A stretch of DNA of 64,000 nt, from contig CAZULC010000001.1 of the NCBI GenBank assembly GCA_964621165.1, forward strand, positions 204,281 through 268,280, read 5' to 3'. The notes beneath the pieces were generated by a model, which was not told the DNA's origin, did not search any database, and saw nothing but the letters and a program-made list of their open reading frames with translations. A program made the translations under genes and the position numbers. How positions within the stretch are numbered: the first letter of the stretch is position 1; every line of letters begins with the position of its first letter. This document shows positions 14,806 to 14,872 of the stretch, piece by piece. This DNA is from an uncultured Ruminococcus sp. GTDB lineage: Bacteria; Bacillota; Clostridia; Oscillospirales; CAG-272.

Positions 14806-14872
14806 GAAGGGGAACGGGTGAACGCGCTCCTTGAAAGAAGCTCGTTCCACCGTCTCCTCTCGCATCCCCACT
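14806..14872. repeat. Family A minimal solo palindrome between the response regulator and kinase genes
   Basis: GGGAAGGGGAACGGGTGAACGCGCTCCTTGAAAGAAGCTCGTTCCACCGTCTCCTCTCGCATCCCC. A purine leader, the hairpin and a pyrimidine leader are present, with no interior modules. Confidence 0.75.

Follow-up and report, generated by a model that had tools for sequence, protein, structure and literature searches.

The locus considered here raises a simple question: how did a palindromic sequence come to separate the genes of a two-component operon, and does it do anything for them? We analysed it within a stretch of 64,000 nucleotides from an uncultured Ruminococcus sp. (hereafter the window). The upstream gene (14873..15553 on the minus strand in the ORF list) encodes an OmpR-type response regulator (RR) with the Pfam domains Response_reg and Trans_reg_C and ends with a TGA codon at 14875-14873. 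The histidine kinase (HK) gene follows on the same strand (12561..14735); its 724-aa product carries the Pfam domains HisKA and HATPase_c and is 100% identical over 724 aa to a database protein (P0001). The kinase initiation region (14733..14750, minus strand) consists of the ribosome binding site AAAGGAG (14750-14744) and, at a distance of 8 nt, an ATG (14735-14733), which leaves an RR-HK spacer of 137 nt (14736-14872). In the relative L001 the orthologous RR is 93% and the orthologous kinase (P0002) 67% identical. An independent Logan contig (L181) is identical to the window across the site (3825/3825 nt), so the spacer palindrome is not a binning or assembly artefact.

The original prediction placed between the RR stop and the kinase RBS and start a unit made only of a purine leader, a hairpin and a pyrimidine leader, and this is what the 67 nt at 14806-14872 contain; the string that it quoted begins 2 nt and ends 3 nt before these coordinates, a trivial difference. 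The size of the unit was nevertheless understated, since the predicted paired region spans 14774-14881 and the outer module reaches to about 14763. On the sense (minus) strand an L1-type leader, purine-rich in this direction (AGTGGGGATGCGAGAGGAGACGGTGGAAC; 14844..14872), begins at the base directly after the RR TGA and corresponds to what had been called the pyrimidine leader on the plus strand. It is followed by the core palindrome GCGCTCCTTGAAAGAAGCTC (14824..14843), within which GCGCTCCTTGAAAGAAGC(TC) is found; the 18-mer at 14824-14841 has one mismatch to the family consensus GCGCTTCTTGAAAGAAGC. Last comes an L2-type leader module (..GGTGAAGTGGAGCAGTTCATATTTATGGGAAGGGGAACGGGTGAAC; 14763..14823, plus strand; repeat family D20, alignment A4) that is common to the copies at 16177, 23698 and 36806. 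The outer part of this L2 leader (14763-14779, plus strand; GGGGTGGTGGGGTTGG) is rich in G-tracts, and similar runs occur in other leaders, e.g. GGGGTTGTGGGGAGG near 18090.

Folding of the transcript, proposed as a check in the original prediction, yielded a stable structure. The 67 nt alone give -27.7 kcal/mol (z -2.4) on the minus (sense) strand and -25.6 kcal/mol (z -3.3) on the plus (antisense) strand, and the 121-nt context (14766-14886, minus strand) reaches -49.1 kcal/mol (z -4.5), with 0/200 shuffles as stable. This context is predicted to form a single long, imperfect hairpin with 38 bp distributed over 7 helices (14774..14881 on the minus strand, coordinates from the dot-bracket). 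Its outer stem of 14 bp, GUGAAGUGG / CCACUUCAC, which appears in the fold as GUGAAGUGGGGAUG / ..CAU..CUCCACUUCAC, has the RR stop codon within it. The core stem contains one G•U pair on the sense strand, with a C•A mismatch at the same position on the plus strand. The RBS and the ATG of the kinase both lie outside the hairpin, the Shine–Dalgarno sequence being unpaired about 25 nt beyond the 3′ arm.

The palindrome belongs to a repeat family that is very dense in the window. The core motif has 24 matches at up to 3 mismatches where 0.05 would be expected, and a self-BLAST reveals about 18 related intergenic segments of 180-430 nt that together make up about 5 kb or about 8% of the window. Examples lie at 5284-5668, 12079-12401, 16177-16610, 18102-18446, 25589-25954, 28281-29086, 31419-31845, 32808-33184, 44901-45255, 46674-46853, 49026-49344, 52799-53016, 60420-60683, 61479-61822 and 63315-63622, and copies are found between core genes (dnaA-dnaN, dnaN-gyrB, gyrB-pfkB-gyrA, mnmE-DUF4342, trkA-BNR). 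The usual copy is a one-ended unit of about 330-400 nt (alignment A2) consisting of a G-rich leader, the hairpin, an arm starting TGTGCAAGAACTTTAAAACTCATTCT..., a conserved centre (..GGCAGTCAGGGACCGCC..CCCCTGCCTGCCCACGCCGG..) and one of two tail types; most copies are of this kind, with the arm present and a second leader absent. Two-ended copies are inverted unit pairs or centrally shortened versions of them, e.g. 5284-5668, 16177-16610 and 32808-33184 in the window and copies of about 530 nt in the relatives L023 and L053. The one at 16177..16610 (minus strand, about 430 nt including leaders) has the same L1...L2′ ends as the spacer unit and stands in the same gene string, between the mnmE stop and the DUF4342 gene. 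Throughout the family the leaders are composed of variable numbers of GGGGAACG/GGGAGACG-like units with 41-45% G and 15-18% T, and come after stop codons. As originally proposed, the core and the leader modules of the spacer unit identify it as a minimal member of this family: it lacks the arm TGTGCAAGAACTTTAAAACTCATTCT... and has the inverted leader directly after the hairpin, hence our term minimal form.

The window includes the chromosome origin region (23267-23886 and 25576-26985), flanked by mnmE, jag and parAB to one side and by dnaA, dnaN, gyrB and gyrA to the other; at 1.4 kb, the spacer between dnaA and dnaN is of unusual length, and it has a family copy at its start. Repeats of other kinds are also present in the window. 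A ~40-nt motif (GGATTATCTTTTT..AAAAnTTATTGCAGAAnTGT) occurs six times at 2863-3384, at intervals of 59-124 nt, and occupies the 620-nt spacer in front of a gene at 3424; this array looks iteron- or operator-like and is unrelated to the palindromic family. Three tandem 106-nt units (93% matches) at 40095-40410 lie just upstream of the infB start (40077) and overlap the end of an ORF at 40402-40731, and the N-terminal region of infB (36985-40077, minus strand) includes a 24-nt (12/18/24-periodic) in-frame repeat array at 39500-39797.

An exact-pattern scan of one genome per species detected the family in 54 stretches from 17 assemblies, with many of the hits at contig ends. All of these assemblies are of uncultured Eubacteriales, Clostridia or Oscillospiraceae, including a Ructibacterium sp., from human, buffalo or deer gut. 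Rfam 15 returned one tRNA only in the window at the gathering threshold and nothing above noise for the full unit at E<=10, BLASTN of the full unit against plasmid and phage collections gave no match, and a full-text literature search with the core motif retrieved no description. A metagenome scan with the perfect 18-nt minimal palindrome produced 120 loci, all chance or coding matches and none with family leaders or arms. The family is undescribed; the kind of element, an interspersed palindrome like MITEs, REP or ERIC, is known. In keeping with a MITE, the whole spacer copy is an imperfect palindrome and the family combines high copy number in 64 kb with occurrence in 17 MAG assemblies. Folded as RNA, a single full unit is unremarkable (z -1.3). 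Inverted end pairs in the window and in L001-L060 enclose at most about 1.4 kb, and the ORFs inside are a phosphoribosyltransferase and unannotated short ORFs; among the selected window ORFs scanned against Pfam, a Y1 transposase (RAYT) was absent. An integron attC site was considered as well and rejected, as the flanks GGGGAAC ... GTTCCCC show the wrong purine/pyrimidine pattern compared with RYYYAAC ... GTTRRRY and the host genes are core genes (dnaA, dnaN, gyrB, mnmE), not cassette genes.

The copies show a strong orientation bias relative to genes. We scored 83 arm-bearing ends from the window and relatives for a frame of at least 120 codons with its stop within 150 nt upstream of the hairpin. 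The frame was on the same strand in 56 of the 83 ends and on the opposite strand in 11, while 16 had neither; four of the six opposite-strand ends in the window are second ends of two-ended copies. This strong sense bias (56 vs 11) shows that the elements are coupled to transcription units in some way, whether by targeting or by selection. The leaders are of variable length and begin 0-10 nt after the TGA, TAA or TAG of unrelated genes, and in 12 cases the frame runs through the T-poor leader to end at a TGA in the hairpin loop (e.g. window 47712-49064). The spacer copy obeys the family rule, with the RR stop, L1 leader, hairpin, inverted L2 leader and RBS in this order. An orientation driven by replication, as for IS200/IS605 and REP, was rejected: copies to the left of dnaA are oriented with the strand of their adjacent gene and not with the replichore, so orientation is coupled to genes.

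Relatives keep the gene order mnmE / DUF4342 / RR / HK, and we compared the orthologous RR-HK pairs as the original prediction had suggested. RR and HK overlap by 11 nt (GACG[ATGACAAATAA]) in L183 and L186, which have no repeat content at the site, and are separated by 55 nt in L184 and 79 nt in L006, both without a repeat. The window follows with 137 nt and its minimal copy, then L004 with 178 nt and small hairpins, L001 with 733 nt and a two-ended copy of the same family, and finally L002 with 939 nt and a long palindrome of a second family. The copy in L001 is about 690 nt long with the same L1...L2′ ends as the spacer copy, its arms are 91% and 76% complementary, and its L1 leader runs from the RR stop. 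L182 is identical to L001 and L181 to the window, so that neither provides a new strain, and the kinase N-terminus used as a query in a metagenome scan found no relatives. The variation between orthologous spacers indicates that the ancestral state was tight or overlapping, that the site has been invaded repeatedly and that no particular structure is conserved. The site documents how repeats can insert into a two-component operon with tight coupling and move its genes apart while both are kept, and its empty, minimal and full states offer a clean set for studying the turnover of a very dense undescribed repeat family.

The spacer palindrome had been described as a solo copy, but it has company in the window: two further copies are minimal and another lacks even the hairpin. 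The second minimal copy (36806..36935; L2 - hairpin - L1′) sits between what read, by eye, as the convergent terminators of a tRNA gene (from Rfam) and infB, and is therefore apparently outside any transcription unit. A third, degenerate one lies after the trkA stop (about 51575..51645, plus strand). The sub-minimal copy at 23698..23790, identified by the repeat search, reads L2 - GCGC - L1′ without the hairpin and would result from a loss of 23 nt between TTC repeats relative to the 36806 copy; it immediately precedes a near-consensus dnaA promoter (TTGACT-N17-TATAAT, 23815-23843). The cores at 14824-14841 and 36854-36871 have the same rare variant GCGCTCCTTGAAAGAAGC (GCTCCTT) in opposite orientation relative to the L1/L2 leaders, the loop being GA in one case and TC in the other. 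Both copies could stem from one parent in which the variant was symmetric, the hairpin could have been inverted, or the two could descend from a mobile mini-form. Minimal forms are rare altogether, accounting for 3/22 ends in the window (3-4 vs 19 arm-bearing) and 2/65 in relatives (2 vs 63).

How fast such sites can change is illustrated by L002 and L184, whose coding DNA is 94-98% identical and which differ at three intergenic sites within 9 kb. The differences concern the second family of long palindromes, which is unrelated in sequence to the first and has the end hairpin AAAGAGCnnnnGCTCTTT. All three sites are filled in L002 (871-1911, 3062-4000 and 5549-6408), whereas the corresponding positions in L184 hold a ~45-nt remnant (1157-1295), nothing (2446-2500) and a single hairpin (4064-4177). 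Between mnmE and DUF4342, L002 has a 1-kb element where L184 has about 45 nt resembling both arms; since pieces of both arms are kept, only deletion explains this site. Between HK and the rSAM gene, L184 retains one end hairpin, placed immediately behind the HK stop, and L002 has about 750 nt more. The RR-HK spacer is full in L002 and empty in L184, with the junction within about 4 nt of the stop, and this filled/empty pair allows a possible AAG target duplication for the second family. With all three sites short in L184 and long in L002, a directed process is conceivable, be it excision or insertion targeted to hairpins.

Taken together, we think that the spacer palindrome is probably what remains of a selfish repeat after the loss of its centre, co-transcribed by accident. 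Copies with shared outer ends form a nested size series from about 690 nt (L001) through about 530 nt (L023, L053) and 370-430 nt (5284, 16177, 32812) down to 115-130 nt (14763-14882, 36806-36935) and about 95 nt without the hairpin (23698). This series, the full copy at the same site in L001, the rarity of minimal forms and the precedent of L002 and L184 favour deletion over growth. An element would have arrived between the RR stop and the HK RBS, at a site where the two genes overlap or stand 55-79 nt apart in the less-invaded relatives, and the interior of a longer two-ended copy would then have been lost. The two terminal hairpins have the 7-nt direct repeats GCTTCTT and AAGAAGC in common, so that recombination between them, or slippage during replication, would be the likely route, and the product would be a leader, one hairpin and an inverted leader. 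Recombination in either half of the terminal palindromes would give exactly the two loop orientations (GA vs TC) seen in the two minimal copies, which also favours deletion. The remnant would be co-transcribed in the RR-HK mRNA as an imperfect hairpin of about 38 bp, from the RR stop to about 25 nt before the HK Shine–Dalgarno sequence, with the kinase translated from its own strong RBS; an effect on mRNA processing or stability and hence on the RR:HK ratio, if any, would be an unselected by-product. The L2 leader of the spacer copy is closer to its window paralogues than to the L001 leader (alignment A4), so that the two insertions need not share a descent and may have arisen independently at a hot spot. 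Among the three possibilities initially envisaged for the unit, the excision footprint comes closest, as the remnant of an internal deletion and not as the footprint of a transposase.

On its own, the spacer copy is an ordinary decay product; the more interesting lead is the behaviour of the family, with its adjacency to stop codons, its G-rich variable leaders and its rapid turnover between full, minimal and empty states. It is a tentative idea, and one that we consider doubtful at present, that the copy represents one state of a class of mobile elements, hitherto undescribed, which would occur in uncultured gut Clostridia and comprise at least two sequence-unrelated families. Members of this class may be placed in a targeted manner a few nt from stop codons, in sense orientation and with G-rich repeat leaders of variable length, and may change from a full (0.4-0.9 kb) to a single-hairpin or an empty state, or back, between genomes that are about 95% identical. 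If an enzyme drives this switching, either by excising elements precisely or by inserting them at hairpins, and it is not a matter of random deletion, a new transposition system would have the minimal hairpin as its footprint or landing pad.

Could the hairpin instead have been kept because it sets the RR:HK ratio? A selected intercistronic regulator of this kind could act by shielding the upstream RR segment from 3′-5′ exonucleases, or through cleavage by a double-strand RNase that uncouples the cistrons, both known from REP and ERIC elements in operons of enterobacteria, and it would profit from a predicted hairpin that is stable (z -4.5), begins at the RR stop and leaves the HK RBS free. 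There are precedents: the stability of mRNA changes when REP or ERIC copies lie downstream of genes (PMC3184786), and MIRU repeats in the spacer of mycobacterial senX3-regX3 supply promoter activity from which regX3 is expressed independently (PMC4213456). Nevertheless, we find this reading rather unlikely, because the structure is not conserved among orthologous spacers, which range from an 11-nt overlap to 939 nt, and because the antisense strand folds about equally well. The core mismatch is a G•U pair on the sense strand, which counts for a regulator, but the 36806 copy, between its by-eye convergent terminators, carries the same variant as a C•A mismatch on the sense strand. Nor do the arms of the family contain an excess of G•U over A•C: among the arm mismatches of six long copies, 43 would be G•U on the sense transcript and 47 would be G•U only on the antisense one. 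The strongly sense orientation of family copies behind genes also fits a regulator. We found nothing that singles out RNA-level selection on the spacer copy, and an effect on the RR:HK ratio as a by-product is plausible.

The original prediction also mentioned a seed form. On this reading, the ~120-nt leader-hairpin-leader, similar in size to ERIC or Correia elements, would be the basic mobile palindrome and would have inserted in this form, and long copies would be this unit with inserts at or beside the hairpin. ERIC elements have larger variants carrying internal inserts, and in the window the L2-hairpin-L1′ design occurs in 3-4 copies within 64 kb; however, the minimal class makes up only the small fraction of ends given above, and most copies are one-ended with an arm and no second leader, which makes this origin quite unlikely. 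The rare core variant common to two minimal copies hints at descent as a small mobile form. The single hairpin after the HK stop of L184, where L002 is full, would also fit insertion beside a pre-existing hairpin, but the mnmE site of the same relative, with its pieces of both arms, does not, and the hairpin-less copy at 23698 shows deletion to be ongoing.

It is very improbable that the unit acts as a partial terminator of transcription, or as an attenuator, between the two genes: a strong hairpin is predicted in the intercistronic spacer, but a U-tract is absent after the 3′ arm, where CCAACCCCACCACCCC (CCAACCCCACC) follows instead, a consensus terminator scan detected no site at 14736-14886, and a promoter scan predicted none in the spacer for the kinase, so that efficient termination would silence HK.

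There is next to no chance, finally, that the palindrome is coding, with the kinase starting at GTG 14876 and overlapping the RR stop (GTGA), even though the frame is open for 47 codons, the overlap is reminiscent of translational coupling and the 771-aa kinase that the ORF list gives from this GTG also exists as a public gene call of one gene caller (P0121). BLASTP of the 771-aa ORF against its 67% identical orthologue P0002 gives an alignment that starts at residue 49, directly after the Met at 14735, leaving the first 47 residues without counterpart; the database model identical to the kinase has 724 aa and starts at ATG 14735, and L001 has a 733-nt repeat in the same interval. The palindrome is accordingly non-coding and the kinase N-terminal extension (..ELLSRSAFT..) an artefact of the ORF track, just as the original prediction had warned. 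A good RBS precedes ATG 14735 and none GTG 14876. The leader is almost free of T (3/29 nt), and an open frame through it is therefore expected from composition. We also discarded a 16-codon ORF (GTG 14851, after AGGAGAC): it lacks conservation, and its start codon stands only 1-3 nt from the Shine–Dalgarno core, the exact distance depending on how this core is placed. Nor do we retain the proposal that the element supplied the stop and the final two codons (GE) of RR, since RR C-termini vary naturally among orthologues (SDGE, SDN, AD, EG, SDDDK, SDDGKDDDK). For annotation, the palindrome thus yields a false 47-residue extension that has already entered one public 771-aa model, and similar artefacts (..LLERSCA.. 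peptides, or ORFs ending at a hairpin-loop TGA) will recur across this genome and its relatives.

The reading that we prefer, a deletion remnant of a selfish repeat, can be set beside several known systems. REP, BIME and REPIN elements resemble the family in being short hairpin repeats at gene 3′ ends and between cistrons, with a BIME-like mosaic of modules. REPINs are mobile as inverted doublets, and singlets result from their decay. The unit described here is far longer, its stem is AT-rich (GCTTCTT), its orientation is tied to the upstream gene and the data examined contained no RAYT gene. The Correia or NEMIS elements of Neisseria are MITE-like palindromes that are co-transcribed, with long hairpins that are processed, and they come in full-length and internally deleted size classes. 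Their terminal inverted repeats measure 26 bp and they duplicate a TA target, whereas the ends of our family are variable G-rich leaders, for which no target duplication can be defined.

Mycobacterial MIRUs offer a parallel in location, as interspersed repeats in the spacer of a two-component operon, oriented with transcription, where the spacer affects the downstream gene (PMC4213456). They are 53-77-bp tandem direct repeats with small overlapping ORFs and not palindromes, in contrast to the single palindromic unit without a predicted promoter found here. There is also a likeness to ERIC/IRU of enterobacteria and Yersinia, which are interspersed imperfect palindromes of about 120 nt in intergenic or intercistronic positions. 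ERIC/IRU are co-transcribed with flanking genes, exist as size variants through internal insertion or deletion and form an RNA hairpin that can change the stability of the upstream mRNA (PMC3184786). The present family, known from sequence alone, has no sequence relationship to ERIC/IRU and occurs in another phylum; its long forms (330-690 nt) are in the majority, and it is set apart by variable G-rich leaders and by a strict position and orientation behind stop codons.
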